Shown here one piece after another: positions 41,158 through 63,066 of a stretch of 64,000 nucleotides of DNA. The stretch spans positions 73,904,001 through 73,968,000 of the forward strand of contig CM097886.1 of the NCBI GenBank assembly GCA_044892525.1, read 5' to 3'. Numbering within the stretch: the first letter of the stretch is position 1; each line of letters starts with the position of its first letter. The position numbers were made by a program, and so were the translations under genes. The stretch comes from Schmidtea polychroa (lineage: Eukaryota). The notes under the pieces are model-generated. The model worked only from the letters and a program-made list of their open reading frames with translations, was not told the DNA's origin and did not search any database.

Positions 41158-43411
41158 ATGAACAAAAAAGGTTATAATAAAAAAGGCAATAAAAGTTACA
41201 AGAACCAACGTAATCAAAATAGAGATTTCAGACAATTTACTAATGGACATTCGACTGATGAAGGTATTTAATTTAATAGATTTATAATTTTTTTAATTTC
41301 TATGATTTAGAAAATAATGAAAATGAAAGTGAAAATATAAAATTGGCAATGTGGGATTTAGAACAGTGCAATTCGAAGATTTGTAGTGGAAGAAAACTTG
41401 TTCGATTAGGACGAGTCAAAATACTAAAAATGAATGAAACATTTAATGGAATAGTTTTAGCTCCCGATGCAACTAAATGTATTGACCCGGAAATTGATTT
41501 AGAAATAATGAAAAAAAGTGGTTTGGCAGTTGTTGATTGCAGTTGGGCCCAAGTCACTACTACAGATTTTCGCAAATTGAAATATAAACACGCTCGATTA
41601 TTGCCTTATTTATTGGCTGCTAATCCTGTGAATTACGGTAAACCCAGCAAATTGAATTGTGCGGAAGCATTGGCGGGATTTTTAGCAATTTTCAACCTAC
41701 GCGAACAAGCTGAAGATTTGATGAATTGTTTCGGTTGGGGTCACAGTTTCATGGAATTAAACGAATCCCTCTTAGACGCATATTCTCAATGCAATACCAC
41801 AACTGACGTATTGAAATGCCAAGATGAATTACTGGATACGATGGATCAGGAAATAGAGGACCACAAAGCCCAAAAATCTCTGACATACGACAATGTTTAT
41901 GCCGAACTCGATAGAGAATTGAAATCGGAATCCGAGGAGGAACAAATCAAAGAATCAGAAATCGATCCGGAATTGAAAATCGCAGATCTCAATATAAAAG
42001 AATGCGATCACAACTCCAAAACGGAAACCGCTCGAGTTCTCACAGATGCCGACATTTCCCAACTGGAAACTCAGGAAAAATCGATAATCAAACACGATGA
42101 AACGGAGAAGTTGGAAAAGGAAGCGAAGAAAAACTGGGATTTGTTTTACAAGCGAAATAAAACAAATTTCTTCAAGGATCGCCATTGGCTGAATAGGGAA
42201 TTTGCGGATCTCGAGCTGTTCTACAGCCCCACCAAATCCTCCGATCAAATCGGTGATTCAGATCGAGCTATTCGGATTTTATTGGAATCTGGCTGTGGAG
42301 TCGGTAATTTCATTTTGCCGTTGCTCGATGAGGTGTCGACAGTCGAGGGCAATCGATGCCGATATTTCTGTTGCGATTTCTCTCCGGTTGCCATTTCACT
42401 TCTGGTTCAAGATCCTCGCTACCAATTGGCCAATAGGAATGCGATCGCTCACGCATTCGTTGCAGACCTCACGCATGATCAGCTGACTGCCACTGTTGAC
42501 AATGTCGATCTCGTTACGTGCGTTTTTGTCCTGTCGGCTATTCACCCAGATAAACACGTGTTTGCGTTGCGCAATCTCTTTTCGTGAGTTTTATGTTAAT
42601 TTTTTGATTGGCTTTACTTTCTGCTCAATTTGAGCACTAAATATCAATGTATACATGCACATGAGGTTTGCACATAATTTCTGTTGATTTTGATTGGGAT
42701 ATATTATTGATTATCGATTTTTATAATTTTAGAAATCATTTAAATATGATTTTATTGAATTTATTCTTTCCACTAAATATTGATTTACAACATATATTTA
42801 TGTTGTTTTTGCATTCTTGTTTGATTGGGTTATATTATTTATTATTGTTTTTAATATCGAAATTTCTAATCAATAAAACATCAATCATCAATGAAATAAG
42901 CATTAATTATCGATTTATTACAATTCTACTATATTGTGAGACATGTTCTTTATTGAATTATTTGAATAATTTATTGAATTTAACCTTTCTGCTCAATGTT
43001 TGCACTAAATATCTAGTTAAACTGTTTTCATTTCACTCTAATTTGCCATGTTTGCTCAATATTATCACCAAATATCGATTTATTTATTTATTAGTTATTA
43101 TTTTTAGAGTCATTAAACCTGGGGGTAAATTGTTGTTTCGTGATTATGGACTATACGATCAAGCTCAGTTGAGATTCGGTAGACGGACAAAACTTGCTGA
43201 CAATTGGTATACTCGTCAAGATGGGACGAGAAGTTATTTTTTTTCGAGGGAATATTTGAAAAATATTGTCGAGGAAGCTTTACCAGGAGAAGTTGTTTTC
43301 AAACAATGTGTTTATGTCCAAACGAAAACAGAAAACAAAGCAGAGGGTTTGAGTGTTGATCGAATATTTATTCAAGCTGTTGTCGAACGTTTAACATTTT
43401 CATTTTTGTGA
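41158..43411 (+). CDS. TSR3-METTL6: TSR3-METTL6 fusion gene (exons 41158-41263, 41311-42583, 43108-43411; 560 aa)
   Basis: The TSR3 domain continues in frame through an acidic linker into METTL6 motifs (ARVLT, EAKKNWDLFYKRNKTNFFKDRHW, LLESGCGVGN, CDFS, FVLSAIHP). The intron TC|GTGAGT...TTTAG|A restores the frame into VIKPGGKLLFRDYGLYD and RQDGTRSYFF. Spliced length is 1,683 nt. Confidence 0.88.
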
Positions 43412-43779: not shown

Positions 43780-44739
43780 ACATTCTTCTAAATAAAATTT
43801 TATCCAATCAAAATTTGCTGAAATCAATCTCGAACTGAAGGAGAAAGATTGTAAGATTGATTTGGTTATTGATAAATTAAATTCTAATTCATTTTTAAAT
43901 AATTTTAAAGTTAAAATTACAAAATAAAATTACAAAGTTAATGGAAGTTAATAAGAAATGAATTATTGGAAGTAATATCAAACAGTAATATCAAACACAC
44001 CGATATGACTCAATCAAATCAGCATGAATTACATAATGGTGAAATGAATCAGGAATATTTTGCTTTTCTCAGAAATCAAATTCAATCAAATGTTGCTGGA
44101 GACTCTTGAAGCAATCCAAGCTATTATCATTTGAAGGTTTAGTAGGAAGAATCAATCTAATGGAGAAGAAGTTCAACTTGTTACAATGTAACATTGATTT
44201 GATTTTTGATAGATTAATAATTAGATTAAATTAATAAAAAGATTAATAATTAAAATAAAAATTCACGAGCAGGATTTGAAACCTGACACAATCTAATCAA
44301 CAAGAATTACATAAAGAATTGCACAATGGGGAAATGAATCAGATGGAATATTTTGCTCTTCTCCGAAATCAGATTCAATCAAATCAAACGTTAAAGGAGT
44401 CAAAATTCAGTCTGATGGTGAAGAACTTGTTAAAATGTAAGATTGATTTGATTTTTGATAAGTTAAATGATAGTTCATTTTTTGATAATTTTGTTAATTG
44501 TAGTAAGATTAATTTAATTAATTCTAAAATTCAAACTAAATCAACAAATGATTTAACGCAAGTTATTAAGGAATCATTTGTTGATGCAGTTATTAAAGAT
44601 CCTAAATAATTAAATAAAAAAAAGTTTAATTTTGGAAAAGAATCAAAGAAGAATTTTCATTAATAAATTTCCCAATTTTAAAAAATTATTAAAATAAAAA
44701 TTCTAAATAAAAGATATGAAAATTCATTAATTAATAAAG
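43780..44739 (+). mobile_element. Three stacked, decayed 5'-end (ORF1 start) relics of the tRNA-targeting retrotransposon
   Basis: Segments at about 43780-43920, 43980-44230 and 44285-44739 each match the first 150-550 bp of ORF1 (e.g. tgtaagattgatttg, gaaatgaatcag..gaatattttgct), with indels. Confidence 0.75.
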
Positions 44740-46395
44740 CTTCTTGATGAATATCACACACAAACTATAAGTCATTTCTTCAGACTTTTTACATCAAAAT
44801 GTGATTTTACTAAACAGATAAATATAGACTCTTTAAAATATGTCACTGGGTCTCGACTTGATAAAACTGACCCTACACTTCAGGAAAGCTTTAATTGGAT
44901 TAATGGTGCTGAACAGATTCGACATCACTCTGGCACAAAAACTCGTTTTCGTCGACCACGAACAGCCATACAGTTTTTTCAAAGAACACATAATATTACA
45001 ATATCTTTTGAAGTGTTGGATGATGAACCTGTTCTTCGCTTTACAACAATTTCGAATGGAACATTCATGTTGACTAGCAAAGATAGAAGTATGATCTCGA
45101 AAGTTTTTCACCTTGCTCTCTATGATTCGTATTTCACTAAATGGAAAAATAGTAACATAAGTGGATCTCTAGCATTTTCTCTGTCACCTAATATTAACAA
45201 AGCAATTTTTAAAGGAGAATTAAGTGAAGCTCCATGGAAATTCATTCATCGAGCTAGAACTAATACATTGGCCAATTTTGCAAAACCTTACAGACAACTT
45301 GAGAATCAAACGTGTAGACGATGTCATGATGAACCGGAAACTTTGCCACATGTTTTGCAAACTTGTAAGGTCCATCAAACTCTTGCACTTAATCGTCACA
45401 ACGATTGCCTCCAACAGATAGTTCACCATTTGAAAGACCCTTCACTCATTGTTGTTGTAGATCACATTTGTTCCTTGGTACCAAATTCTAAAGAACGTGT
45501 TGACTTGATTATAACAAACAATAGTAAAAAGACAATTTATATGGTTGACATCAAATGTCCGTTTGATTCGCTAGTGACATTTGATAATGTAAATAATAAA
45601 AATTTAGCAAAATATGATTCTTTGAAAAAGGAAATACAAGCTGTAAAACCTAATTTCACTGTGGAACTTCATACTTGTATTATTGGTTCCATTGGATCAG
45701 TTCCCCCAGTAACGTATGATCTGCTTAAAAAAATAGGTGTTTCGGATGGTAAAATACATGGATTATTGAAAGCATGTGCATTAAATAATATAACGCACTC
45801 TGCTAAAATATGGCATTTTCATGCGACTGGCATGCTTCCAGATCATTAAATAAATATTAATTAAATTTTGCTATCATTATCGGAATTGTTTGAATTGTGA
45901 GTTGTTGTTTTCTTTTTCAATGGTCTTATCATGATTACTTTGATAATTATAAACATTTCACAAGTCTGTCCATCAGAACAGCAAATCTTCCTATTATTCT
46001 AGTGAAATAAAGACAAATGAATTTAACTCCTGCCTGATGATTGATAGCTGCAGTGACATTCTGAGGAACTCAAAACCAAGAAATCATGAAAGCTGTCTAG
46101 ATTCAAAGAATGACTTCAATTATAATGTCAACAGTCAAAATATTCAAATCTGTTTTTTCAACTCAGTCCCTCCAAGAAAGTTGAAATTGCAATGCCGGCA
46201 CAGATGACCGATGAAAATCAGAATAGCCAGAGAAAATTCAATGAGTGAAATAATATTGAGACAAATATTTCCCAAAAATGATATATTAGTTGAAAAATTG
46301 TCTCTCTGGCGAAGAAACTCATGAATGGCGGATTCCAAGCAGAATCATCTCATTATCAAAATATAAAAAAACTTGTTATAATAATAAATGTTTAA
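44740..46395 (+). mobile_element. 5'-truncated copy of the RLE retrotransposon (end of RT region, CCHC finger, RLE, 3' UTR)
   Basis: Near-identical to the element from cttcttgatgaatatc onward, with the same 3' junction tttaa|ACTCAAG. Confidence 0.92.
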
Positions 46396-46988: not shown

Positions 46989-47062
46989 ACATTTAGAGAT
47001 TATTTCCAAACAGGAATATCAAACAATCGAAAACTTGTCAACAACTTCAATCACACACCGAA

Positions 47063-49222
47063 ATGACGCAATCTAATCAACGTGAATTGCATAAGGAATT
47101 GCATAATGGAGAAATGAATCAGTTGGAATATTTTGCTCTTCTCCGAAATCAAATCCAATCAAATCAAACGTTGCTGGAATCAATCGTGGAACCATCTATG
47201 CTTTTTCCTTATGAAGATTTGTCAAGAAAATTTAGTCTGATGGAGAAGAATTTCAACTTGTTAAAATGTAAGATTGATTTGATTTTTGATAAGTTGAATG
47301 ATAATTCTTTTTTTGATGATTTTGGTAATGATTGTAAAATTAATTTAATTAATTCTCAAATTCAAACTGAATCAACAAATGATTTAACGCAGGTTATTAA
47401 GGAATCATTTGTTGATACAGTTATTAAAGATCCTAAACCTTTAAATAAAAAAACGTTTAAAAGTAATAATGTTAAAGATTCATTTAGGAAAGAAAATTTT
47501 AACTTTGATTCTTTTCCACGAATTTTGGAAAAGAGTCAAAGAAGAATTTTCATTAATAAATTTCCACATTTTAAAAAATTATTAAAATTAAAAAACTCAA
47601 AATATAAGGATGATACCATTAATAATGAGATTTCCTTAATTAATAAATCGGATTTGGGTTTTAAAATTGGCGATAAGGACAAATTCTTTTATCGAAATGG
47701 CAATTTTTGCATTTCGATAAAATTAAATAAGAATGATAAAGTTAAGGTTGATGTTCAGGGCGATAGGAATAAGAAATCACAAATAATAAATAAAACTTTG
47801 ATTTCTAATATTATTAATTTTAATCTTAGTAATTCAAAATTGATTTCTGCTCCTTTAGCGATAAGAAAGTTTTTATTTGCTCTTTCTACAAAACTTTCTG
47901 ATACTGTTAATATTAAAAACGAAATTCATAAGGGTTCCGTTATTAATAAAGCTCTTAATAGTTTAAAATCAGAAAATCAGCTACCAGACTTTCTTGTGAA
48001 ATCCGATTTAAGATATATTGATGGTGACTTTTTTATGAGGGATCTTCTTACTTTAGGAAATGTCGACAATGATTCTTTAAGCATAGGATCATCAATTTTG
48101 ACAAGGAAACAAGTAGAAAGACTTTATATAGATTTCCCAGAAATTAGGGAAATGTTTTTTGTTGAAAACATTTCTAAAAATCCTGATAAATTAATTAATT
48201 TAATAAATTACTTAAAGTTAAATAAAGAATTTCCTAATGATATTTCTTTTTCTGAAGGTAAATTTATTAGTGCTCATAAATCTAAGAAAATTGAACCTGA
48301 CTTGAACACTGCTTCTGACATAATGTTTAATCTTGGGTTATTCGATTTAATTGAAGTATCTAAAAACGATATTGAATTTGATAGAATTTTATCACTACCT
48401 GTATCTTCGACTAAAATTGTAGAAATAATTTTCCATCTCAACTATTTGAAGTTGAAGGATGATATTAAATATTCTAGTAACATAAGTTATGGTAATTATG
48501 TTTTAAACTATTTCCGTAATGTTTTACTCCTTCATTCTATAATTGATCGTGCACAGTGCAACTCGTTGACAATTGATTCTCTTGAAATATGGGCTTCTGA
48601 ATTAATTGATAAAATTCCTTCTAATTCTTATTTTAAAATTAGTTGTCAAGAGAAGTTAATAAAATATAAAAAGTGGTTACTGACTGGTGAAATCGATAAG
48701 TTAAAAAATATAATTTCACCCGATACAATTAAAAGAATAAATATATTTCTAAATTTATTTAATAAATCATTTATCGAAAAAGTGGACCGGTTGAATAATA
48801 TAAACTCGTTACTTGCTCACATCAATGATTTTCGTTATGAAAATAGTGATAATATTACAATTAAAGCTAAAAGATTATTATATTTCGTGATTAGAGATAA
48901 GAAAAAGTTTCTAATTAAAAATAGAAATGACTTTCAGATACCAATGAAATGTCGAAAACTCTGTAGTATAGAAATGAGCTTGGTTATCTTTGATCTTATC
49001 GATTCTCTTGAAACTCTGATAGCTTGCAAAGAACCATCTAACTCTGTCAAATCCACTGATAACTTTGATATCTCTAATAAAGAAAAAAAATCGACTGTCG
49101 AAACTATCATTTTACCAACTGATATTGATGAGGATGCATCAGGTTTGGAATCCAAAATTACAGATAGTAAAAAGATGATGACTAGAAATAATCTAAAATT
49201 GTCAAATGCCACATCCAAGTGA
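47063..49222 (+). CDS. Retrotransposon ORF1, 719 aa, unknown function (copy A)
   Basis: ATG 19 nt inside the element. Likely N-terminal coiled coil; no recognisable zinc finger or Myb motif. Ends in a TGA that is in frame with ORF2. Confidence 0.85.
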   Translation: MTQSNQRELHKELHNGEMNQLEYFALLRNQIQSNQTLLESIVEPSMLFPYEDLSRKFSLMEKNFNLLKCKIDLIFDKLNDNSFFDDFGNDCKINLINSQIQTESTNDLTQVIKESFVDTVIKDPKPLNKKTFKSNNVKDSFRKENFNFDSFPRILEKSQRRIFINKFPHFKKLLKLKNSKYKDDTINNEISLINKSDLGFKIGDKDKFFYRNGNFCISIKLNKNDKVKVDVQGDRNKKSQIINKTLISNIINFNLSNSKLISAPLAIRKFLFALSTKLSDTVNIKNEIHKGSVINKALNSLKSENQLPDFLVKSDLRYIDGDFFMRDLLTLGNVDNDSLSIGSSILTRKQVERLYIDFPEIREMFFVENISKNPDKLINLINYLKLNKEFPNDISFSEGKFISAHKSKKIEPDLNTASDIMFNLGLFDLIEVSKNDIEFDRILSLPVSSTKIVEIIFHLNYLKLKDDIKYSSNISYGNYVLNYFRNVLLLHSIIDRAQCNSLTIDSLEIWASELIDKIPSNSYFKISCQEKLIKYKKWLLTGEIDKLKNIISPDTIKRINIFLNLFNKSFIEKVDRLNNINSLLAHINDFRYENSDNITIKAKRLLYFVIRDKKKFLIKNRNDFQIPMKCRKLCSIEMSLVIFDLIDSLETLIACKEPSNSVKSTDNFDISNKEKKSTVETIILPTDIDEDASGLESKITDSKKMMTRNNLKLSNATSK

Positions 49223-52200
49223 AGGTATGTGCCTGTATCAGCCTCAACGTCTACTGCATTGTCTGATGAGACTGATGCAGAATGCACTCTTGACACTTGT
49301 AATTTAAAAAGCTGGTTTACTGATGACGAGATTGACTATTATTTTGAAAGTCACATAAGTAACCGAAAGTTCGCGTTCATTAAATGCTACATTGTGAGTA
49401 TTTTATGCTCAAATATTTCAGAAGATATTGTTTCGATTCCCGAAAATGTTTTCGATGCTCGAATGATCTTGTGTCCTCTGAATATAAATAATTGTCATTG
49501 GATATTATTTGTTTACTGTAAAACGTCTTGTAGCTCTTACTATATTGACTCAATATTTAAAAATACAAAGAAGTTTGCAAATAAACAAAGTGTTTTTAAA
49601 ATTAATTATGTATTAAATAACAAATTTAATCTTAATAATAAAATAGTAGATAACCCTCATAAAGATTTGGAATATCAAAATAATGATTTTGATTGTGGTC
49701 CTTTCATATGCGCTTATGCAATGATAGTTTGTAAAGAATGGGACATTTTTCCTACTAATTTTATTTTTAATATTAGGAAAGAAATTCGTACATTTCAATC
49801 TAGCCAATTGATTTATAACACTAAAGTTTCAGGGGGTGGAATTTCAAAAAATCATTTTCTAAATGGAATTAATTTTAAAAAAGCAATTGCTTTAAAAAAG
49901 AATCATCCAAATAATAATATTGTAAAACCAATAAAACTTACCAATGTAAAAGCTTGTGTGTCGACCTTATTGAAAATGTGGTTTGAATCTAATTCAAGGA
50001 TCATGGTTCTTTCTCCAGAATTGACAATGAATCTGATTACTCAAAATAATGTCTATATTATAGAAAATGTTTCTTTTAAACAATTTAAGGATATTGACTT
50101 GATTATCGGTATTATTCCAAATGAAAATTATTGGTGCCTTTTCCTTTGTTCAATTAGACTTGGTTTCAGCTACATTTTTGACGTTCGATCTGAAACTATC
50201 AATGATAGACTGATGGGAATTGGAGAAAATATCACAGATTACTTGAATAAATTTATGCTAGATAAGAATATTAAACTTCAACGAAATCATAGTCTTTTCC
50301 GATTTTCATTCTTTTCCGATGATCCAATAGTTCATGCTTCATCTTTCTTATTGTTTCTGGAAGAATATAATTCTGGAAATATATTGAATAGAGAAAAAGT
50401 AGTTGAAAGACTTGAAACGATGCAATCTAAAATAAATAATAAAGTTGCAATAAATTTAAATTTAATAAATTGTAAAGTTTCTGATGATATTTTAACAAAT
50501 TATTTCAATAATTTAAATTTATCTGAAAATTTCATATTTTTAAATAGTACAATGTGCATTGCAATAATAGACAATTGCACTCAATATTTAAATGACTTTT
50601 TAAATACTGATCAACTTATGAAAGCGCAAATTGTATTTGCAATTATTGCCCCACCAAAATCTCAGCAAATCTTGTTTGTCATCGACTACAACACTGATGA
50701 ACATTATTTACTTAATCCTTCAACTTTAGAGTTAAATATTCCCTACTTATTCCCTGCGAATGATTTATTAAATAAAATCAATGAAATTAGAGAAACTCCT
50801 GGTCTTTGCAGTAAAGCTGGAAACTGTCCTCATGATGTACGTGGTTCTGGTCTTGTTAGTAGAGTTCTCATCTGTGCCTTTATGAAACATTACGCTTTAG
50901 ATTTATCTCTTGAAAACATAAATTTACATGATATTGGAGGTGTGATTAATTCTTTATTGCCAACTGTAAAAGAAATTGAACAGTGTCCTAGTAAGACGGT
51001 GCCTGCTGATAAAGAAATTGTGAAGATGAAAATTAAAGAGCGCATTTTGTGGATAAATAAACATTTGATTACATTACGAAATGCAAGTGTTGATAAGATA
51101 AGTGATTTTATTAAGGATAATATTGTAAATAATAAAGTATCAAGTTCGAATAAGATTAGAAGACCATATTTAGGGAATAAATTCAATAAAAATGTACAAA
51201 ATAAAATAAAATTACGTACATCATTTAATACCCACATGAAAATGACTGTAAATAAAATTTTAATTAATGACGAAATAAATGATCGACCAACCATTAGAGA
51301 TCATATTGTCCATTTTAGTCATCGTGATCCGATTATAAGAAATTATGATAATATTTTAAAATATGGTGTACAATCTTTTAATATTCTAACGGTTGAACCT
51401 ATCGATGAGGATGAAGTGTTGTCTGAATTAAAAAGAGCTGATAACACATCTCCTGGACTTGATGGAATTAAATATAACGATATTGCAATTCTTGATCCAC
51501 AAGGTAAATTGTTGACACTTCTCTTTAATAAAATCCTGATCGATAATACTGTTCCTGATGTTTGGAAATCATTTAAAACATTAATGATTCCAAAACCTGA
51601 CAAGAGTGATAAATATAGTTTAATATCTTCTTGGCGACCTATTGCATTATTGTCGGTAGTTTATAAATTATTTGCGTCAATTTTAGCTAGGCGTCTTACA
51701 TCGTGGGTAAAATTGAATAATCTTCTTCACGTTGGACAAAAAGGGGGTTCTGTACACGATGGATGTGTTGAACACAATTCTATACTTTCATCTTGTCTTG
51801 AACATTCCAAATATAGTAAAGATATGCCAATCGCTATTGCATTTCTTGACATTAAGGACGCTTTTGGCAGTGTACCCCATGACTACATGTGGTGTATTTT
51901 GCGACATATTGGAGTTGGTGAAGATTTCACAAATATTTTGAAGCTTTTGTATACAGAAACAAGTTCTTTCTATACTTGTGGACCTATTGAAACACCGAAC
52001 ATTGCGATTAAACAGGGTGTTAAACAAGGGTGCCCTCTTTCAATGATTTTGTTTGCAATAGCAATCAATCCTGTTCTTCAAGCTGTTAGTCTTTCAAATA
52101 TAGATTCTTTTAAAATTCGTGAATCTTCAATTCAAGTTCTTGCATATGCTGATGATATAGCTCTTATTGCCAATAATGCTACTGACTTACAAAAGATAAT

Positions 52201-53782
52201 AAACATTGCTTTCAATACTGCTTCAGAAATAGGCTTTGAATATCGACCAGAAAAGTGTGCGTACATCGAACTACCAAATAGTGTAAACCTTAGTGAAATA
52301 ACAATTGATAACATTAACATCAAAAAATTACTAATCAAAGAGTTCTATCAATATCTTGGGGTACCGGTTGGTGAAGAACATGACCAGAGTCCTTATGAAA
52401 TTCTTGATCAGGTAGTCAGTGATGCGAAAAGACTTGCTGATTCAGACTTGTACGGTTGGCAAAAGCTGAAAGCTTACAAAATATTTCTTCACTCTCGTCT
52501 AATTTTCCCATTTAGAACTAGAGAAATTAAAGTTAGTGCTCTTTCTGCAAATAGTGGTAACAGTACAACAAAACTTCGCAGTCACTTGAGAAAGATGATG
52601 AATTTGTCTGGTCATTCTGAAATCAGTTACTTTTACAATTCTATTGAAAATGGAGGCGCATCTTGTACTGATCTTCTTGATGAATATCACACACAAACTA
52701 TAAGTCATTTCTTTAGACTTTTTACATCAAAATGTGATTTTACTAAACAGATAAATATAGACTCTTTAAAATATGTCACTGGGTCTCGACTTGATAAAAC
52801 TGACCCTACACTTCAGGAAAGCTTTAATTGGATTAATGGTGCTGAACAGATTCGACATCACTCTGGCACAAAAACTCGTTTTCGTCGACCACGAACAGCC
52901 ATACAGTTTTTTCAAAGAACACATAATATTACAATATCTTTTGAAGTGTTGGATGATGAACCTGTTCTTCGCTTTACAACAATTTCGAATGGAACATTCA
53001 TGTTGACTAGCAAAGATAGAAGTATGATCTCGAAAGTTTTTCACCTTGCTCTCTATGATTCGTATTTCACTAAATGGAAAAATAGTAACATAAGTGGATC
53101 TCTAGCATTTTCTCTGTCACCTAATATTAACAAAGCAATTTTTAAAGGAGAATTAAGTGAAGCTCCATGGAAATTCATTCATCGAGCTAGAACTAATACA
53201 TTGGCCAATTTTGCAAAACCTTACAGACAACTTGAGAATCAAACGTGTAGACGATGTCATGATGAACCGGAAACTTTGCCACATGTTTTGCAAACTTGTA
53301 AGGTCCATCAAACTCTTGCACTTAATCGTCACAACGATTGCCTCCAACAGATAGTTCACCATTTGAAAGACCCTTCACTCATTGTTGTTGTAGATCACAT
53401 TTGTTCCTTGGTACCAAATTCTAAAGAACGTGTTGACTTGATTATAACAAACAATAGTAAAAAGACAATTTATATGGTTGACATCAAATGTCCGTTTGAT
53501 TCGCTAGTGACATTTGATAATGTAAATAATAAAAATTTAGCAAAATATGATTCTTTGAAAAAGGAAATACAAGCTGTAAAACCTAATTTCACTGTGGAAC
53601 TTCATACTTGTATTATTGGTTCCATTGGATCAGTTCCCCCAGTAACGTATGATCTGCTTAAAAAAATAGGTGTTTCGGATGGTAAAATACATGGATTATT
53701 GAAAGCATGTGCATTAAATAATATAACGCACTCTGCTAAAATATGGCATTTTCATGCGACTGGCATGCTTCCAGATCATTAA
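49223..53782 (+). CDS. Retrotransposon ORF2: Ulp1-like cysteine protease(s), reverse transcriptase, CCHC finger, RLE endonuclease (copy A)
   Basis: WFTDDEIDYY, NCHW, YIDS, QNNDFDCG; SPGLDGI, WRPIALL, FLDIKDAFGSV, GVKQGCPLS, LAYADD, YLG; CRRCHDEPETLPHVLQTC, RHN, RVDLI...VDIKCPF. The frame is open from the codon after the ORF1 stop; the track's 'M' at 49229 is a GTG. Confidence 0.95.
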   Translation, partial: RYVPVSASTSTALSDETDAECTLDTCNLKSWFTDDEIDYYFESHISNRKFAFIKCYIVSILCSNISEDIVSIPENVFDARMILCPLNINNCHWILFVYCKTSCSSYYIDSIFKNTKKFANKQSVFKINYVLNNKFNLNNKIVDNPHKDLEYQNNDFDCGPFICAYAMIVCKEWDIFPTNFIFNIRKEIRTFQSSQLIYNTKVSGGGISKNHFLNGINFKKAIALKKNHPNNNIVKPIKLTNVKACVSTLLKMWFESNSRIMVLSPELTMNLITQNNVYIIENVSFKQFKDIDLIIGIIPNENYWCLFLCSIRLGFSYIFDVRSETINDRLMGIGENITDYLNKFMLDKNIKLQRNHSLFRFSFFSDDPIVHASSFLLFLEEYNSGNILNREKVVERLETMQSKINNKVAINLNLINCKVSDDILTNYFNNLNLSENFIFLNSTMCIAIIDNCTQYLNDFLNTDQLMKAQIVFAIIAPPKSQQILFVIDYNTDEHYLLNPSTLELNIPYLFPANDLLNKINEIRETPGLCSKAGNCPHDVRGSGLVSRVLICAFMKHYALDLSLENINLHDIGGVINSLLPTVKEIEQCPSKTVPADKEIVKMKIKERILWINKHLITLRNASVDKISDFIKDNIVNNKVSSSNKIRRPYLGNKFNKNVQNKIKLRTSFNTHMKMTVNKILINDEINDRPTIRDHIVHFSHRDPIIRNYDNILKYGVQSFNILTVEPIDEDEVLSELKRADNTSPGLDGIKYNDIAILDPQGKLLTLLFNKILIDNTVPDVWKSFKTLMIPKPDKSDKYSLISSWRPIALLSVVYKLFASILARRLTSWVKLNNLLHVGQKGGSVHDGCVEHNSILSSCLEHSKYSKDMPIAIAFLDIKDAFGSVPHDYMWCILRHIGVGEDFTNILKLLYTETSSFYTCGPIETPNIAIKQGVKQGCPLSMILFAIAINPVLQAVSLSNIDSFKIRESSIQVLAYADDIALIANNATDLQKIINIAFNTASEIGFEYRPEKCAYIELPNSVNLSEITIDNINIKKLLIKEFYQYLGVPVGEEHDQSPYEILDQVVSDAKRLADSDLYGWQKLKAYKIFLHSRLIFPFRTREIKVSALSANSGNSTTKLRSHLRKMMNLSGHSEISYFYNSIENGGASCTDLLDEYHTQTISHFFRLFTSKCDFTKQINIDSLKYVTGSRLDKTDPTLQESFNWINGAEQIRHHSGTKTRFRRPRTAIQFFQRTHNITISFEVLDDEPVLRFTTISNGTFMLTSKDRSMISKVFHLALYDSYFTKWKNSNISGSLAFSLSPNINKAIFKGELSEAPWKFIHRARTNTLANFAKPYRQLENQTCRRCHDEPETLPHVLQTCKVHQTLALNRHNDCLQQIVHHLKDPSLIVVVDHICSLVPNSKERVDLIITNNSKKTIYMVDIKCPFDSLVTFDNVNNKNLAKYDSLKKEIQAVKPNFTVELHTCIIGSIGSVPPVTYDLLKKIGVSDGKIHGLLKACALNNITHSAKIWHFHATGMLPDH

Positions 53783-54328
53783 ATAAATATTAATTAAATT
53801 TTGCTATCATTATCGGAATTGTTTGAATTGTGAGTTGTTGTTTTCTTTTTCAATGGTCTTATCATGATTACTTTGATAATTATAAACATTTCACAAGTCT
53901 GTCCATCAGAACAGCAAATCTTCCTATTATTCTAGTGAAATAAAGACAATTGAATTTAAATCCTGCCTGATGATTGATAGCTGCAGTGACATTCTGAGGA
54001 ACTCAAAACCAAGAAATCATGAAAGCTGTCTAGATTCAAAGAATGACTTCAATTATAATGTCAACAGTCAAAATATTCAAATCTGTTTTTTCAACTCAGT
54101 CCCTCCAAGAAAGTTGAAATTGCAATGCCGGCACAGATGACCGATGAAAATCAGAATAGCCAGAGAAAATTCAATGAGTGAAACAATATTGAGACAAATA
54201 TTTCCCAAAAATGATATATTAGTTGAAAAATTGTCTCTCTGGCGAAGAAACTCATGAATGGCGGATTCCAAGCAGAATCATCTCATTATCAAAATATAAA
54301 AAAACTTGTTATAATAATAAATGTTTAA

Positions 54329-54921: not shown

Positions 54922-54995
54922 ACATTTAGAGATTATTTCCAAACAGGAATATCAAACAATCGAAAACTTGTCAACAACTTCAATCACACACCGAA

Positions 54996-57155
54996 ATGAC
55001 GCAATCTAATCAACGTGAATTGCATAAGGAATTGCATAATGGAGAAATGAATCAGTTGGAATATTTTTCTCTTCTCCGAAATCAAATCCAATCAAATCAA
55101 ACGTTGCTGGAATCAATCGTGGAACCATCTATGCTTTTACATTATGAAGATTTGTCAAGAAAATTTAGTCTGATGGAGAAGAATTTCAACTTGTTAAAAT
55201 GTAAGATTGATTTGATTTTTGATAAGTTAAATGATAGTTCTTTTTTTGATGATTTTGGTAATGATTGTAAAATTAATTTAATTAATTCTCAAATTCAAAC
55301 TGAATCAACAAATGATTTAACGCAGGTTATTAAGGAATCATTTGTTGATACAGTTATTAACGATCCTAAACATTTAAATAAAAAAAAGTTTAAAACTATT
55401 AATGTTAAAGAATCATTTAGGAAAGAAAATTTTAACTTTGATTCTTTTCCACAAATTTTGGAAAAGAGTCAAAGAAGAATTTTCATTAATAAATTTCCAC
55501 ATTTTAAAAATTTATTAAAATTAAAAAACTCAAAATATAAGGATGATACTATTAATAATGAAATTTCCTTAATTAATAAATCGGATTTGGGTTTTAAAAT
55601 TGGCGATAAGGACAAATTCTTTTATCGAAATGGCAATTTTTGCATTTCGATAAAATTAAATAAGAATGATAAAGTTAAGGTTGATGTTCAGGGCGATAGG
55701 AATAAGAAATCACAAATAATAAATAAAACTTTGATTTCTAATATTATTAATTTTAATCTTAGTAATTCAAAATTGATTTCTCCTCCTTTAGCGATAAGAA
55801 AGTTTTTATTTGCTCTTTCTACAAAACTTTCTGATACTGTTAATATTAAAAACGAAATTCATAAGGGTTCTGTTATTAATAAAGCTCTTAATAGTTTAAA
55901 ATCAGAAAATCAGCTACCAGACTTTCTTGTGAAATCCGATTTAAGATATATTGATGGTGACTTTTTTATGAGGGATCTTCTTACTTTAGGAAATGTCGAT
56001 AATGATTCTTTAAGCATAGGATCATCAATTTTGACAAGGAAACAAGTAGAAAGACTTTATATAGATTTCCCAGAAATTAGGGAAATGTTTTTTGTTGAAA
56101 ACATTTCTAAAAATCCTGATAAATTAATTAATTTAATAAATTACTTAAAGTTAAATAAAGAATTTCCTAATGATATTTCTTTTTCTGAAGGTAAATTTAT
56201 TAGTGCTCATAAATCTAAGAAAATAGAACCTGACTTGAACAATGCTTCTGACATAATGTTTAATCTTGGGTTATTCGATTTAATTGAAGTATCTAAAAAC
56301 GATATTGAATTTGATAGAATTTTATCACTACCTGTATCTTCGACTAAAATTGTAGAAATAATTTTCCATCTCAACTATTTGAAGTTGAAGGATGATATTA
56401 AATATTCTAGTAACATAACTTATGGTAATTATGTTTTAAACTATTTCCGTAATGTTTTACTCCTTCATTCTATAATTGATCGTGCACAGTGCAACTCGTT
56501 GACAATTGATTCTCTTGAAATATGGGCTTCTGAATTAATTGATAAAATTCCTTCTAATTCTTATTTTAAAATTAGTTGTCAAGAGAAGTTAATAAAATAT
56601 AAAAAGTGGTTACTGACTGGTGAAATCGATAAGTTAAAAAATATAATTTCACCCGATACAATTAAAAGAATAAATATATTTCTAAATTTATTTAATAAAT
56701 CATTTATCGAAAAAGTTGACCGGTTGAATAATATAAACTCGTTACTTGCTCACATCAATGATTTTCGTTCTGAAAATAGTGATAATATTACAATTAAAGC
56801 TAGAAGATTATTATATTTCGTAATTAGAGATAAGAAAAAGTTTCTAATTAAAAATAGAAATGACTTCCAGATACCAATGAAATGTCGAAAACTCTGTAGT
56901 ATAGAAATGAGCTTGGTTATCTTTGATCTTATCGATTCTCTTGAAACTCTGATAGCTTGCAAAGAACCATCTAACTCTGTCGAATCCACTGATAACTTTG
57001 ATATCTCTAATAAAGAAAAAATTTCGACTGTCGAAACTATCATTTTACCAACTGATATTGATGAGGATGCATCATGTTTGGAATCCAAAATTACAGATAG
57101 TAAAAAGATGATGACTAGAAATAATCTAAAATTGTCAAAGGCCACATCCAAGTGA
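54996..57155 (+). CDS. Retrotransposon ORF1 (copy B), 719 aa
   Basis: Homologous to 47063-49222. Confidence 0.85.
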   Translation: MTQSNQRELHKELHNGEMNQLEYFSLLRNQIQSNQTLLESIVEPSMLLHYEDLSRKFSLMEKNFNLLKCKIDLIFDKLNDSSFFDDFGNDCKINLINSQIQTESTNDLTQVIKESFVDTVINDPKHLNKKKFKTINVKESFRKENFNFDSFPQILEKSQRRIFINKFPHFKNLLKLKNSKYKDDTINNEISLINKSDLGFKIGDKDKFFYRNGNFCISIKLNKNDKVKVDVQGDRNKKSQIINKTLISNIINFNLSNSKLISPPLAIRKFLFALSTKLSDTVNIKNEIHKGSVINKALNSLKSENQLPDFLVKSDLRYIDGDFFMRDLLTLGNVDNDSLSIGSSILTRKQVERLYIDFPEIREMFFVENISKNPDKLINLINYLKLNKEFPNDISFSEGKFISAHKSKKIEPDLNNASDIMFNLGLFDLIEVSKNDIEFDRILSLPVSSTKIVEIIFHLNYLKLKDDIKYSSNITYGNYVLNYFRNVLLLHSIIDRAQCNSLTIDSLEIWASELIDKIPSNSYFKISCQEKLIKYKKWLLTGEIDKLKNIISPDTIKRINIFLNLFNKSFIEKVDRLNNINSLLAHINDFRSENSDNITIKARRLLYFVIRDKKKFLIKNRNDFQIPMKCRKLCSIEMSLVIFDLIDSLETLIACKEPSNSVESTDNFDISNKEKISTVETIILPTDIDEDASCLESKITDSKKMMTRNNLKLSKATSK

Positions 57156-60100
57156 AGGTATGTGCCTGTATCAGCCTCAACGTCTACTGCATTGTCTGAT
57201 GAGACTGATGCAGAATGCACTCTTGACACTTGTAATTTAAAAAGCTGGTTTACTGATGACGAGATTGACTATTATTTTGAAAGTCACATAAGTAACCGAA
57301 AATTCGCGTTCATTAAATGTTACATTGTGAGTATTTTATGCTCAAATATTTCAGAAGATATTGTTTCGATTCCCGAAAATGTTTTCGATGCTCGAATGAT
57401 CTTGTGTCCTCTGAATATAAATAATTGTCATTGGATATTATTTGTTTACTGTAAAACGTCTTGTAGCTCTTACTATATTGACCCAATATTTAAAAATACA
57501 AAGAAGTTTGCAAATAAACAAAGTGTTTTTAAAATTAATTATGTATTAAATAACAAATTTAATCTTAATAATAAAATAGTAGATAACCCTCATAAAGATT
57601 TGGAATATCAAAATAATGATTTTGATTGTGGTCCTTTCATATGCGCTTATGCAATGATAGTTTGTAAAGAATGGGACATTTTTCCTACTAATTTTATTTT
57701 TAATATTAGGAAAGAAATTCGTACATTTCAATCTAGCCAATTGATTTATAACACTAAAGTTTCAGGGGGTGGAATTTCAAAAAATCATTTTCTAAATGGA
57801 ATTAATTTTAAAAAAGCAATTGCTTTAAAAAAGAATCATCCAAATAATAATATTGTAAAACCAATAAAACTTACCAATGTAAAAGCTTGTGTGTCGACCT
57901 TATTGAAAATGTGGTTTGAATCTAATTCAAGGATCATGGTTCTTTCTCCAGAGTTGACAATGAATCTGATTACTCAAAATAATGTCTATATTATAGAAAA
58001 TGTTTCTTTTAAACAATTTAAGGATATTGACTTGATTATCGGTATCATTCCAAATGAAAATTATTGGTGCCTTTTCCTTTGTTCAATTAGACTTGGTTTC
58101 AGCTACATTTTTGACGTTCGATCTGAAACTATCAATGATAGACTGATGGGAATTGGAGAAAATATCACAGATTACTTGAATAAATTTATGCTAGATAAGA
58201 ATATTAAACTTCAACGAAATCATAGTCTTTTCCGATTTTCATTCTTTTCCGATGATCCAATAGTTCATGCTTCATCTTTCTTATTGTTTTTGGAAGAATA
58301 TAATTCTGGAAATATATTGAATAGAGAAAAAGTAGTTGAAAGACTTGAAACGATGCAATCTAAAATAAATAATAAAGTTGCAATAAATTTAAATTTAATA
58401 AATTGTAAAGTTTCTGATGATATTTTAACAAATTATTTCAATAATTTAAATTTATCTGAAAATTTCATATTTTTAAATAGTACAATGTGCATTGCAATAT
58501 TAGACAATTGCACTCAATATTTAAATGACTTTTTAAATACTGATCAACTTATGAAAGCGCAAATTGTATTTGCAATTATTGCCCCACCAAAATCTCAGCA
58601 AATCTTGTTTGTCATCGACTACAACACTGATGAACATTATTTACTTAATCCTTCAACTTTAGAGTTAAATATTCCCTACTTATTTCCTGCGAATGATTTA
58701 TTAAATAAAATCAATGAAATTAGAGAAACTCCTGGTCTTTGCAGTAAAGCTGGAAACTGTCCTCATGATGTACGTGGTTCTGGTCTTGTTAGTAGAGTTC
58801 TCATCTGTGCCTTTATGAAACATTACGCTTTAGATTTATCTCTTGAAAACATAAATTTACATGATATTGGAGGTGTGATTAATTCTTTATTGCCAACTGT
58901 AAAAGAAATTGAACAGTGTCCGGTTAAGACGGTGCCTGCTGATAAAGAAATTGTGAAGATGAAAATTAAAGAGCGCATTTTGTGGATAAATAAACATTTG
59001 ATTACATTACGAAATGCAAGTGTTGATAAGATAAGTGATTTTATTAAGGATAATATTGTAAATAATAAAGTATCTAGTTCGAATAAGCTTAGAAGACCAT
59101 ATTTAGGGAATAAATTCAATAAAAATGTACAAAATAAAATAAAATTACGTACATCATTTAATACTCACATGAAAATGACTGTAAATAAAATTTTAATTAA
59201 TGACGAAATAAATGATCGACCAACCATTAGAGATCATATTGTCCATTTTAGTCATCGTGATCCGATTATAAGAAATTATGATAATATTTTAAAATATGGT
59301 GTACAATCTTTTAATATTCTAGCGGTTGAACCTATCGATGAAGATGAAGTGTTGTCTGAATTAAAAAGAGCTGATAACACATCTCCTGGACTTGATGGAA
59401 TTAAATATAATGATATTGCAATTCTTGATCCACAAGGTAAATTGTTGACACTTCTCTTTAATAAAATCCTGACCGATAATACTGTTCCTGATGTTTGGAA
59501 ATCATTTAAAACATTAATGATTCCAAAACCTGACAAGAGTGATAAATATAGTTTAATATCTTCTTGGCGACCTATTGCATTATTGTCGGTAGTTTACAAA
59601 TTATTTGCGTCAATTTTAGCTAGGCGTCTTACATCGTGGGTAAAATTGAATAATCTTCTTCACGTTGGACAAAAAGGGGGTTCTGTACACGATGGATGTG
59701 TTGAACACAATTCTATACTTTCATCTTGTCTTGAACATTCCAAATATAGTAAAGATTTGCCAATTGCTATTGCATTTCTTGACATTAAGGACGCTTTTGG
59801 CAGTGTACCCCATGACTACATGTGGTGTATTTTGCGACATATTGGAGTTGGTGAAGATTTCACAAATATTTTGAAGCTTTTGTATACAGAAACAAGTTCT
59901 TTCTATACTTGTGGACCTATTGAAACACCGAACATTGCGATTAAACAGGGTGTTAAACAAGGGTGCCCTCTTTCAATGATTTTGTTTGCAATAGCAATCA
60001 ATCCTGTTCTTCAAGCTGTTAGTCTTTCAAATATAGATTCTTTTAAAATTCGTGAATCTTCAATTCAAGTTCTTGCATATGCTGATGATATAGCTCTTAT

Positions 60101-61715
60101 TGCCAATAATGTTACTGACTTACAAAAGATAATAAACATTGCTTTCAATACTGCTTCAGAAATAGGCTTTGAATATCGACCAGAAAAGTGTGCGTACATC
60201 GAACTACCAAATAGTGTAAACCTTAGTGAAATAACAATTGATAACATTAACATCAAAAAATTACTAATCAAAGAGTTCTATCAATATCTTGGGGTACCGG
60301 TTGGTGAAGAACATGACCAGAGTCCTTATGAAATTCTTGATCAGGTAGTCAGTGATGCGAAAAGACTTGCTGATTCAGACTTGTACGGTTGGCAAAAGCT
60401 GAAAGCTTACAAAATATTTCTTCACTCTCGTCTAATTTTCCCATTTAGAACTAGAGAAATTAAAGTTAGTGCTCTTTCTGCAAATAGTGGTAACAGTACA
60501 ACAAAACTTCGCAGTCACTTGAGAAAGATGATGAATTTGTCTGGTCATTCTGAAATCAGTTACTTTTACAATTCTATTGAAAATGGAGGCGCATCTTGTA
60601 CTGATCTTCTTGATGAATATCACACACAAACTATAAGTCATTTCTTCAGACTTTTTACATCAAAATGTGATTTTACTAAACAGATAAATATAGACTCTTT
60701 AAAATATGTCACTGGGTCTCGACTTGATAAAACTGACCCTACACTTCAGGAAAGCTTTAATTGGATTAATGGTGCTGAACAGATTCGACATCACTCTGGC
60801 ACAAAAACTCGTTTTCGTCGACCACGAACAGCCATACAGTTTTTTCAAAGAACACATAATATTACAATATCTTTTGAAGTGTTGGATGATGAACCTGTTC
60901 TTCGCTTTACAACAATTTCGAATGGAACATTCATGTTGACTAGCAAAGAGAGAAGTATGATCTCGAAAGTTTTTCACCTTGCTCTCTATGATTCGTATTT
61001 CACTAAATGGAAAAATAGTAACATAAGTGGATCTCTAGCATTTTCTCTGTCACCTAATATTAACAAAGCAATTTTTAAAGGAGAAATAAGTGAAGCTGCA
61101 TGGAAATTCATTCATCGAGCTAGAACTAATACATTGGCCAATTTCGCAAAACCTTACAGACAACTTGAGAATCAAACGTGTAGACGATGTCATGATGAAC
61201 CGGAAACTTTGCCACATGTTTTGCAAACTTGTAAGGTCCATCAAACTCTTGCACTTAATCGTCACAACGATTGCCTTCAACATTTAGTTCACCATTTGAA
61301 AGACCCTTCACTCATTGTTGTTGTAGATCACATTTGTTCCTTGGTACCAAATTCTAAAGAACGTGTTGACTTGATTATAACAAACAATAGTAAAAAGACA
61401 ATTTATATGGTTGACATCAAATGTCCGTTTGATTCGCTAGTGACATTTGATAATGTAAATAATAAAAATCTAGCAAAATATGATTCTTTGAAAAAGGAAA
61501 TACAAGTTGTAAAACCTAATTTCACTGTGGAACTTCATACTTGTATTATTGGTTCCATTGGATCAGTTCCCCCAGTGACGTATGATCTGCTTAATAAAAT
61601 AGGTGTTTCGAATGGTAAAATACATGGCTTATTGAAAGCATGTGCATTAAATAATATAACGCACTCTGCTAAAATATGGCATTTTCATGCGACTGGCATG
61701 CTTCCAGATCATTAA
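57156..61715 (+). CDS. Retrotransposon ORF2 protease-RT-RLE (copy B)
   Basis: Homologous to copy A; open from the codon after the TGA at 57153-57155. Confidence 0.95.
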   Translation, partial: RYVPVSASTSTALSDETDAECTLDTCNLKSWFTDDEIDYYFESHISNRKFAFIKCYIVSILCSNISEDIVSIPENVFDARMILCPLNINNCHWILFVYCKTSCSSYYIDPIFKNTKKFANKQSVFKINYVLNNKFNLNNKIVDNPHKDLEYQNNDFDCGPFICAYAMIVCKEWDIFPTNFIFNIRKEIRTFQSSQLIYNTKVSGGGISKNHFLNGINFKKAIALKKNHPNNNIVKPIKLTNVKACVSTLLKMWFESNSRIMVLSPELTMNLITQNNVYIIENVSFKQFKDIDLIIGIIPNENYWCLFLCSIRLGFSYIFDVRSETINDRLMGIGENITDYLNKFMLDKNIKLQRNHSLFRFSFFSDDPIVHASSFLLFLEEYNSGNILNREKVVERLETMQSKINNKVAINLNLINCKVSDDILTNYFNNLNLSENFIFLNSTMCIAILDNCTQYLNDFLNTDQLMKAQIVFAIIAPPKSQQILFVIDYNTDEHYLLNPSTLELNIPYLFPANDLLNKINEIRETPGLCSKAGNCPHDVRGSGLVSRVLICAFMKHYALDLSLENINLHDIGGVINSLLPTVKEIEQCPVKTVPADKEIVKMKIKERILWINKHLITLRNASVDKISDFIKDNIVNNKVSSSNKLRRPYLGNKFNKNVQNKIKLRTSFNTHMKMTVNKILINDEINDRPTIRDHIVHFSHRDPIIRNYDNILKYGVQSFNILAVEPIDEDEVLSELKRADNTSPGLDGIKYNDIAILDPQGKLLTLLFNKILTDNTVPDVWKSFKTLMIPKPDKSDKYSLISSWRPIALLSVVYKLFASILARRLTSWVKLNNLLHVGQKGGSVHDGCVEHNSILSSCLEHSKYSKDLPIAIAFLDIKDAFGSVPHDYMWCILRHIGVGEDFTNILKLLYTETSSFYTCGPIETPNIAIKQGVKQGCPLSMILFAIAINPVLQAVSLSNIDSFKIRESSIQVLAYADDIALIANNVTDLQKIINIAFNTASEIGFEYRPEKCAYIELPNSVNLSEITIDNINIKKLLIKEFYQYLGVPVGEEHDQSPYEILDQVVSDAKRLADSDLYGWQKLKAYKIFLHSRLIFPFRTREIKVSALSANSGNSTTKLRSHLRKMMNLSGHSEISYFYNSIENGGASCTDLLDEYHTQTISHFFRLFTSKCDFTKQINIDSLKYVTGSRLDKTDPTLQESFNWINGAEQIRHHSGTKTRFRRPRTAIQFFQRTHNITISFEVLDDEPVLRFTTISNGTFMLTSKERSMISKVFHLALYDSYFTKWKNSNISGSLAFSLSPNINKAIFKGEISEAAWKFIHRARTNTLANFAKPYRQLENQTCRRCHDEPETLPHVLQTCKVHQTLALNRHNDCLQHLVHHLKDPSLIVVVDHICSLVPNSKERVDLIITNNSKKTIYMVDIKCPFDSLVTFDNVNNKNLAKYDSLKKEIQVVKPNFTVELHTCIIGSIGSVPPVTYDLLNKIGVSNGKIHGLLKACALNNITHSAKIWHFHATGMLPDH

Positions 61716-62262
61716 ATAAAATATTAATTAAATTTTGCTATCATTATCGGAATTGTTTGAATTGTGAATTGTTGTTTTCTTTTTCAATGGTCTTATCATG
61801 ATTACTTTGATAATTATAAACATTTCACAAGTCTGTCCATCAGAACAGCAAATCTTCCTATATTTCTAGTGAAATAAAGACAAATGAAACAATCTCCTGC
61901 CTGATGACTGATAGCTGTAGTGACATTCTGAGGAACTCAAAACCAAGAAATCATGAAAGCTGTCTAGATTCAAAGAATGATTTCAATTATAATGTCTACA
62001 GTCAAAATATTCAAATCTGTTTTTTCAACTAAGTCCCTCCAAGAAAGTTGAAATTGCAATGCCGGCACAGATGACCGATGAAAATCAGAATAGCCAGAGA
62101 AAATTCAATGAGCGAAACAAAATTGAGACAAATATTTCCCAAAAATAATATATTAGTTGAAAAATTGTCTCTCTGGCGAAGAAACTCATGAATGGCGGAT
62201 TCCAAGCAGAATCATCTCATTATCAAAATATAAAAAAACTTGTTATAATAATAAATGTTTAA

Positions 62263-62854: not shown

Positions 62855-62963
62855 ACATTTAGAGATTATTTCCAAACAGGAATATCAAACAATCGAAAAC
62901 TTGTCAACATTTCCTTTATTTGTTGCGTCGAATTTGATTTGCAGATATTTTCCAGAATAAATT

Positions 62964-63066
62964 GTCAGGATGGCCGAGTGGTCTAAGGCGCCAGACTCAA
63001 GTGCTAACTTACGCTGGGTGTTCTGGTCTCCGAATGGAGGCGTGGGTTCAAATCCCACTTCTGACA
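62964..63066 (+). tRNA. tRNA-Leu(CAA), intact, with 19-nt intron (63002-63020)
   Basis: GTCAGGATGGCCGAGTGGTCTAAGGCGCCAGACTCAAG[TGCTAACTTACGCTGGGTG]TTCTGGTCTCCGAATGGAGGCGTGGGTTCAAATCCCACTTCTGACA, followed by a T-run terminator. Confidence 0.97.

Follow-up and report, generated by a model that had tools for sequence, protein, structure and literature searches.

The window analysed here, a stretch of 64,000 nucleotides (nt) from Schmidtea polychroa (NCBI GenBank assembly GCA_044892525.1, contig CM097886.1, positions 73,904,001 to 73,968,000 of the forward strand), contains an array of tRNA genes into which copies of a retrotransposon lacking long terminal repeats (a non-LTR element) have been inserted. 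Its two open reading frames (ORFs) are separated by a single in-frame UGA. We put at about one half the probability that this is a bicistronic, tRNA-Leu-specific, NeSL/R5-LIN-like element of the restriction-like endonuclease (RLE) type and that its ORF2 is translated through termination-coupled reinitiation at a GUG codon in the start position of the family. The copies and their target are located as follows, in window coordinates.

47044 to 54328, plus strand: full-length copy A, 7285 bp, delimited by its junctions against an empty array unit; it consists of a 19-nt 5' leader, ORF1, UGA, ORF2 and a 546-nt 3' untranslated region (UTR)
54977 to 62262, plus strand: full-length copy B, with UGA at 57153 and GTG at 57162 as in copy A, and both ORFs open
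44740 to 46395, plus strand: 5'-truncated copy C, near-identical to A, comprising the C-terminus of the reverse transcriptase (RT), the RLE and the 3' UTR
53783 to 54328, plus strand: 3' UTR of copy A, its end similar to that of LIN25_SM
62964 to 63066, plus strand: intact target gene, an intron-containing tRNA-Leu(CAA), the anticodon assigned by reading the sequence (ARAGORN gave ???)
62910 to 62994, plus strand: 85 bp of the array unit including the first 31 nt of tRNA-Leu, missing from copies A and B at their 5' junction

The array unit of 733 bp holds tRNA-Gly(GCC), tRNA-Gln(CTG) and tRNA-Leu(CAA). At all three 3' junctions (copies A, B, and C) the element enters tRNA-Leu at one and the same base; insertion is thus site-specific, into the anticodon arm of a multicopy gene. 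Copies A and B occupy adjacent array units, share a single 5' junction and have a 19-nt leader each. The features of the class are present, a non-LTR RT followed by a CCHC knuckle and a PD-(D/E)xK endonuclease, with no apurinic/apyrimidinic endonuclease (APE). A scan with Rfam returned tRNAs only, with just four sub-threshold chance matches inside the element. The element supplies only 19 nt ahead of the ORF1 ATG (47044-47062) and the A box of tRNA-Leu is deleted; transcription may begin upstream, antisense to tRNA-Gln and tRNA-Gly. Directly 5' of copy C, decayed fragments of ORF1 5' ends, about 77-85% identical, were found at 43850-44739. One of them retains an array-like flank ahead of its ATG, which suggests from sequence that the 5' junction may be a feature of the family.

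The coding part of the element is laid out below for copy A.

47063 to 49222, plus strand: ORF1, 719 amino acids (aa) plus TGA, with its ATG at 47063; a conserved protein family of unmatched fold
49220 to 49222, plus strand: the sole in-frame UGA, in the context AAG-UGA-AGG
49229 to 49231, plus strand: GTG aligned with Met1 of relatives (V-P-V-S against M-P-A-S/T), the proposed start of ORF2
49227 to 49307, plus strand: out-of-frame ATG overlapping the GTG and opening a dead-end ORF of 26 codons
49295 to 49792, plus strand: Ulp1-like (C48) cysteine protease; H92, D109, Q152, and C158 are invariant in five of five proteins
49832 to 49840, plus strand: Gly-Gly-Gly behind the protease, a candidate self-cleavage site
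51587 to 52363, plus strand: RT (YADD), whose closest solved relatives are R2 proteins
53246 to 53752, plus strand: CCHC knuckle and restriction-like endonuclease motifs RHN, RVD, and DIK

The stop-to-stop frames 46997-49222 and 49223-53782 form a single frame with one TGA between them (49220-49222), and ORF2 spans 1519 codons. A preliminary description of this DNA had reported one frame interrupted by a single UGA, and this is true of copy A and of copy B (57153-57155). As it also stated, a fusion would measure 2239 aa, ORF2 has its first in-frame ATG within the protease (49463, codon 81, past the conserved WFTD motif), and the copies differ at many other sites, namely at 67 of 6720 coding positions. 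The identical context downstream of the stop to which it had drawn attention is real (161 nt) but is no evidence by itself, because 15 of the 66 gaps among the 67 coding differences are equally long (mean 98). A changed genetic code had been discounted, correctly in our analysis: two host frames, a caspase and the last exon of a methyltransferase, end in TGA and have no internal TGA, the methyltransferase stop standing in a TGA-A context, and host Trp is encoded by TGG, so that the code is standard. Recoding of the UGA as selenocysteine, or its reading by the host as an amino acid, is favoured by the in-frame position only and is barely credible given these host frames. Moreover, the element contains no selenocysteine insertion sequence (SECIS) or other RNA family near its gathering score, the 3' UTR has three loose matches to the SECIS pattern, none of which folds like a SECIS, and the proteins of relatives start downstream of the UGA position.

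Synonymous divergence between copies A and B is about 2% throughout. Differences in ORF2 comprise 17 nonsynonymous and 19 synonymous changes, corresponding to an omega of 0.25-0.39 (P 4e-5 to 4e-3, kappa 1-8); the protease half holds five nonsynonymous and eight synonymous changes, and in the RT half significance is lost at kappa 8 (P 0.06). ORF1, with 22 nonsynonymous and 9 synonymous changes and an omega of 0.63-1.09, is indistinguishable from neutral. The purifying selection on ORF2, acting below the stop, therefore makes a dead copy unlikely. By parsimony, stop and GTG would have been present in both lineages while ORF2 was under selection; later local conversion within the array could have unified the junction. 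We consider it quite improbable that both copies are disabled and the junction functionless, with an inherited AUG-to-GUG start loss spread by array recombination or trans mobilization. TAT-GTG is indeed one transition away from an AUG start, the common 5' junction, the same 85-bp target loss and the adjacent array units are as duplication gives, and the omega of ORF1 is not below neutral. However, the ORF2 differences are significantly biased towards synonymous changes, no further stop or frameshift occurs in 2 x 6.7 kb, the 3' UTRs differ at 18 of ~547 sites and the flanking target parts at 0-5 of 648, and the junction would have to have been converted locally after the copies diverged.

Evidence for a start of ORF2 at the GTG comes from its relatives. 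GTG-CCT follows the UGA by 6 nt, and the candidate start, if GTG is the start, is thus close to the upstream stop. A search with the ORF2 N-terminus, allowing lengths of 835-2659 aa, gave four matches among 7996 candidates, all of 1499-1537 aa and 39-51% identity, and an exhaustive search with a junction-spanning query and no length limit gave 89. Among 92 fetched proteins (16 with a match to an ORF1 profile and 76 to one of ORF2, the latter probably in the main cellular Ulp1/SENP-like proteins), none matched both profiles; hence no fused relative was recovered, and no sense-codon fusion in place of the stop was seen among the relatives' proteins. Word-index searches for ORF1 relatives returned none in 7995 and none in 8000 candidates; these relatives were found by exhaustive search alone. 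In an alignment of 12 element-like ORF2 N-termini, chosen by hand, seven begin with M-P in the column of the GTG, three begin three or four columns later, and two are longer. ATG, GTG, and TTG together make up 4.7% of the element's codons, and a gene caller that had run past a leaky stop would produce scattered starts; the fixed start column thus argues for a conserved initiation site. In an RT tree, the element and two MPAS relatives form a clade with 100/100 support, and M-P starts occur outside this clade too. The protease-domain tree is poorly resolved, with 2 of 13 branches starred. After removal of Met, the ORF2 N-termini of relatives P0001-4, P0013, P0016, and P0028 read P-A/T-S/T/P-V/D. 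N-termini of this kind recall Pro/N-degrons, and by analogy the ORF2 protein (ORF2p), or its leader, may turn over rapidly.

The sequence around the UGA and GTG can form alternative RNA structures and contains a donor-like motif.

49229 to 49287, plus strand: long stem S1, separated from the UGA by a 6-nt spacer and covering the GTG, the ATG, and part of the donor
49254 to 49280, plus strand: hairpin S2, that of the preliminary description, mutually exclusive with S1
49223 to 49230, plus strand: splice-donor-like AG|GTATGT right after the stop; this 8-mer does not recur in the element

S2 exists (-13.4 kcal/mol in context), but it is predicted to be unformed in free RNA, with pair probabilities of 0.0. 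In S1, 49229-49241 is predicted to pair with 49272-49287 (-22.6 kcal/mol, pair probability 0.9-1.0 in free RNA), and a 9-bp core begins 10 nt past the UGA. S1 persists when up to 10 nt after the stop are masked, and the balance flips to S2 only once at least 11 nt are masked. S1 is joint most stable among 1445 windows of 60 nt. Dinucleotide shuffles folded as well in 20 of 200 (z -1.3) and 7 of 200 cases (z -1.9), and synonymous shuffles in 7 of 1000, or 45 of 1000 when codon use was uniform; among 200 other coding windows, three had an equal or better z. The statistical significance of the predicted S1 is therefore moderate. Two long AT-rich hairpins within ORF1, at 47365-47422 and 47487-47560, reach the strength of the junction stem (-22.6 and -29.3 kcal/mol, with synonymous-shuffle z of -3.0 and -4.4), and the single noted difference between A and B in the latter falls in its loop.

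Readthrough of the UGA as the main route to ORF2 is possible, though we judge it unlikely. In this scenario, the change from AUG to GUG destroyed the start, a 2239-aa fusion stimulated by S1 is produced, and self-cleavage at Gly-Gly frees the same RT-endonuclease. The exact in-frame join and the lack of an in-frame AUG ahead of codon 81 fit well. The spacer of 6 nt before S1, or 10 nt before its core, and the survival of S1 upon masking of up to 10 nt bring it near to viral readthrough stems, which have spacers of 7-12 nt and stand behind UGA-CUA or UGA-CGG (PMC3159437). S1 being joint most stable and equalled by only 7 of 1000 synonymous shuffles adds to this, and Tj1 (PMC5911963) and Tca2 (PMC2194720) provide precedents among LTR elements. 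Yet S1 is only modestly unusual in shuffles, no fused relative exists among the proteins fetched and the N-terminus is conserved at the GTG. Furthermore, as the preliminary description had cautioned, UGA-A is not a canonical strong context, UGA-AGG differing from the leaky UGA-CUA/CGG and UAG-CAR-YYA (PMC3159437), and the similar-looking junction of Tca2 gave no readthrough in a reporter (PMC2194720). The position of S1 suits readthrough stimulators and a downstream structure of the SART1 type alike.

The donor-like motif raises the possibility, which we hold to be improbable, that ORF2 is translated from a separate or processed mRNA arising from an internal promoter in ORF1, from cis-splicing at AG|GTATGT, or from spliced-leader trans-splicing. 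The motif is found at a single place in the 7.3 kb, immediately past the stop, and the Tca2 junction contained a cryptic promoter (PMC2194720). However, the YAG acceptors between stop and protease (49241, 49280) would put a leader AUG out of frame, and use of the donor would remove the GTG and so give an ORF1-only RNA, not an ORF2 RNA. The proteins of non-LTR elements usually work on their own encoding RNA, which favours full-length RNA.

The closest solved relatives of the ORF2 N-terminus are Ulp1/SENP enzymes, and what follows the protease is conserved. Of 24 element-like proteins, three were dropped as too short; in 15 of the remaining 21, Gly-Gly stands 38-49 residues past the catalytic Cys, while four have GxG and two have neither. 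Among other proteins it occurs in 3 of 19, and among background windows in 15 of 195. Ulp1-family enzymes cleave after di-glycine, and together with the conservation of Gly-Gly this leads us to infer a self-releasing leader protease. Neither ORF1 nor the junction contains Gly-Gly, and, in contrast to retroviral processing, such cleavage would leave a fused ORF1 attached to the protease. With self-release, the same mature RT would arise by whatever route ribosomes enter the frame; this can explain the tolerance of a weak start, and it keeps readthrough viable, for which the excess of Gly-Gly in element-like proteins over background also speaks. Further downstream, ORF2 aa 245-575 (49955-50947) may contain one or two degenerate protease-like repeats, the second of which matches P0012, P0034, and P0076; a self-alignment was unconvincing for repeats.

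In the mechanism that we favour, translation of ORF1 from this two-gene non-LTR element, taken as active, would terminate at the UGA, and ORF2 would be a separate protein whose family start, M-P-A-S/T, has been replaced by GUG in this lineage. Ribosomes ending ORF1 would stop against S1 and unwind it, and a minority would reinitiate at or beside the GUG, giving little ORF2p per ORF1 protein. The shared frame of ORF1 and ORF2 would then simply result from the spacer of 6 nt. The N-terminal Ulp1 protease would probably cut itself off at the following Gly-Gly, freeing the RT-endonuclease. Such a route has precedents: coupling in SART1 requires structure downstream of the stop-restart site (PMC5972666), ORF2 translation in L1 is AUG-independent (PMC11485995), and viral termination-reinitiation accepts non-AUG codons near the stop (PMC2793014). 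Several observations weigh against reinitiation at the GUG. Its context is weak, with U at -3 and C at +4, an out-of-frame AUG with G at -3 overlaps it, and S1 is placed where readthrough stimulators sit. UGGGA, the calicivirus motif of the termination upstream ribosome-binding site (TURBS), was not found close to the stop, with one loose match 75 nt upstream. The relatives are proteins predicted by gene callers, and their M could be encoded by ATG, GTG, or TTG; the comparison with them was made at the protein level, with ORF1 and ORF2 matched in separate proteins, and a scan of prokaryotic genomes for their DNA gave 97 pattern matches and no confirmed one. Rescue of the out-of-frame AUG by -1 frameshifting was considered and dropped, its frame containing no slippery heptamer.

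The preliminary description had proposed programmed readthrough or non-AUG reinitiation in a layout like that of gag-pro-pol, and it is partly supported. Reinitiation gains a specific codon, GTG 49229, and readthrough is not the leading interpretation. The gammaretroviral analogy is not supported as the leading interpretation, as the ORF2 proteins of the family begin with an N-terminus of their own at the position of the GTG, no Gag model or fold was matched by ORF1, the protease is a cysteine protease of the Ulp1 type, and it finds no Gly-Gly to cut in ORF1 or at the junction. It is tempting, if rather unlikely to prove right, to speculate that the lineage switched strategy after losing its AUG, either to S1-stimulated UGA readthrough or to a ribosome-driven change from S1 to S2 that licenses the GUG, with the self-cleaving Ulp1 leader making the change harmless.

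The predicted core of the ORF1 protein (aa 145-495, pLDDT 81) consists of three helix/beta-hairpin repeats followed by a helical domain, with disordered ends. Eight ORF1 relatives of 633-960 aa have low-complexity, mostly basic tails like those of ORF1. No Pfam family was found, comparison with PDB sequences gave a best E of 0.043, Atlas yielded no usable match, Foldseek with the model returned none at E<=0.001 in PDB or BFVD, and VIA gave a best Z of 6.8 with a generic helical bundle (4.3 for the core); this lack of matches neither proves a new fold nor excludes a Gag or capsid, and the label Gag-like has no support. A role in RNA binding or as a chaperone might be proposed only by analogy with other ORF1 proteins. 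Relatives P0007, P0008, P0015, and P0024 carry a C-terminal CxxC...CxxC zinc-ribbon-like motif, which is absent from the ORF1 of this element. Its N-terminus is fast-evolving: 12 of the 67 coding differences between A and B fall in the first 500 nt (47063-47560), most of them nonsynonymous.

Elsewhere in the window, a 6843-bp unit is repeated in tandem about 3.2 times at 19883-42056, its copies being 99.9% identical. Each contains a TSR3 frame without introns, the remains of a DDE_1 transposase, and decayed minus-strand RT-like fragments; the repeats reflect either a very recent duplication or an assembly artefact. The TSR3 frame of the last copy continues in frame into a methyltransferase (Pfam Methyltransf_12/25) and later exons (41280-43411), so that the sequence predicts a fusion of TSR3 with the methyltransferase; in the upstream copies only the TSR3 part is present. 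An intronless CARD-caspase gene at 17999-19084 is possibly a retrogene.

RLE-type elements are usually described as having a single ORF (PMC5678591). The present element, with its separate conserved ORF1, does not fit this description. SLACS/CZAR and R5 are reportedly two-ORF exceptions among RLE-type elements. We describe a diverged family whose conserved ORF1 has no structural match, and its conserved Gly-Gly offers a testable job, self-cleavage, for the Ulp1-like protease of such elements. In the literature searched, which did not cover Repbase or subscription journals, there was no description of this family, which Repbase may already catalogue, none of the ORF structure of R5/LIN elements, and no mention of readthrough for any element of the RLE type. 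How ORF2 is translated from bicistronic non-LTR RNAs is unsettled even for L1 (PMC11485995), and the junction, which packs a stop codon, a GUG, a decoy AUG and two stems able to switch into 70 nt of a natural element under selection, is a compact case for separating readthrough from reinitiation by a few point changes.

Among known systems, the element most resembles the R5/LIN lineage of the NeSL clade, in which LIN elements are placed with R5 and Ulp1-like proteases have been noted (PMC4640811). The planarian LIN25_SM, LIN15_SM, and LIN24_SM are likewise RLE-type elements that target multicopy RNA genes. As this element does, LIN15/25 insert into tRNA genes in the sense orientation, and its 3' end resembles that of LIN25_SM from Schmidtea at 24 of 28 columns aligned by eye in an AT-rich region (PMC4640811). 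The RT tree comprised unnamed relatives only, and affiliation with R5/LIN is tentative. The LIN targets listed are 28S, tRNA-Arg, and tRNA-Glu (PMC4640811), and the anticodon arm of tRNA-Leu(CAA) is outside that list, giving a tRNA-Leu-specific RLE element a target specificity new relative to those in this source. The nematode elements NeSL-1 and Utopia-1_TSP also have an N-terminal Ulp1-like protease before RT, zinc finger, and RLE (PMC4640811). However, Utopia is described as encoding, in general, one protein, whereas the present element adds a 719-aa ORF1 and has a tRNA target in place of SL1/U2. Gammaretroviral gag-pol, Tca2, and Tj1 share with it the in-frame stop before the protease, structure just 3', and the lack of an early AUG, and in-phase stops precede ORF2 in Zorro3 (PMC3956500). 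The gammaretroviruses, Tca2, and Tj1 differ from it in the stop context and in their aspartic protease, in contrast to the cysteine protease found here, and the element's ORF1 has no Gag match and its relatives are unfused, with a start of their own. Should the strategy switch be true, a non-LTR element would have converged on the retroviral combination of readthrough and protease with unrelated parts, a case for which the literature searched offers no example. The closest parallels to the reinitiation that we favour are SART1 and human L1, which are likewise bicistronic with the ORF2 start near the ORF1 stop, SART1 having a downstream structure and L1 tolerating non-AUG starts. Both are APE-type elements, SART1 with a UAAUG overlap and L1 with a 63-nt spacer and an AUG, whereas the S. 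polychroa element combines an RLE with a 6-nt spacer and a natural GUG.

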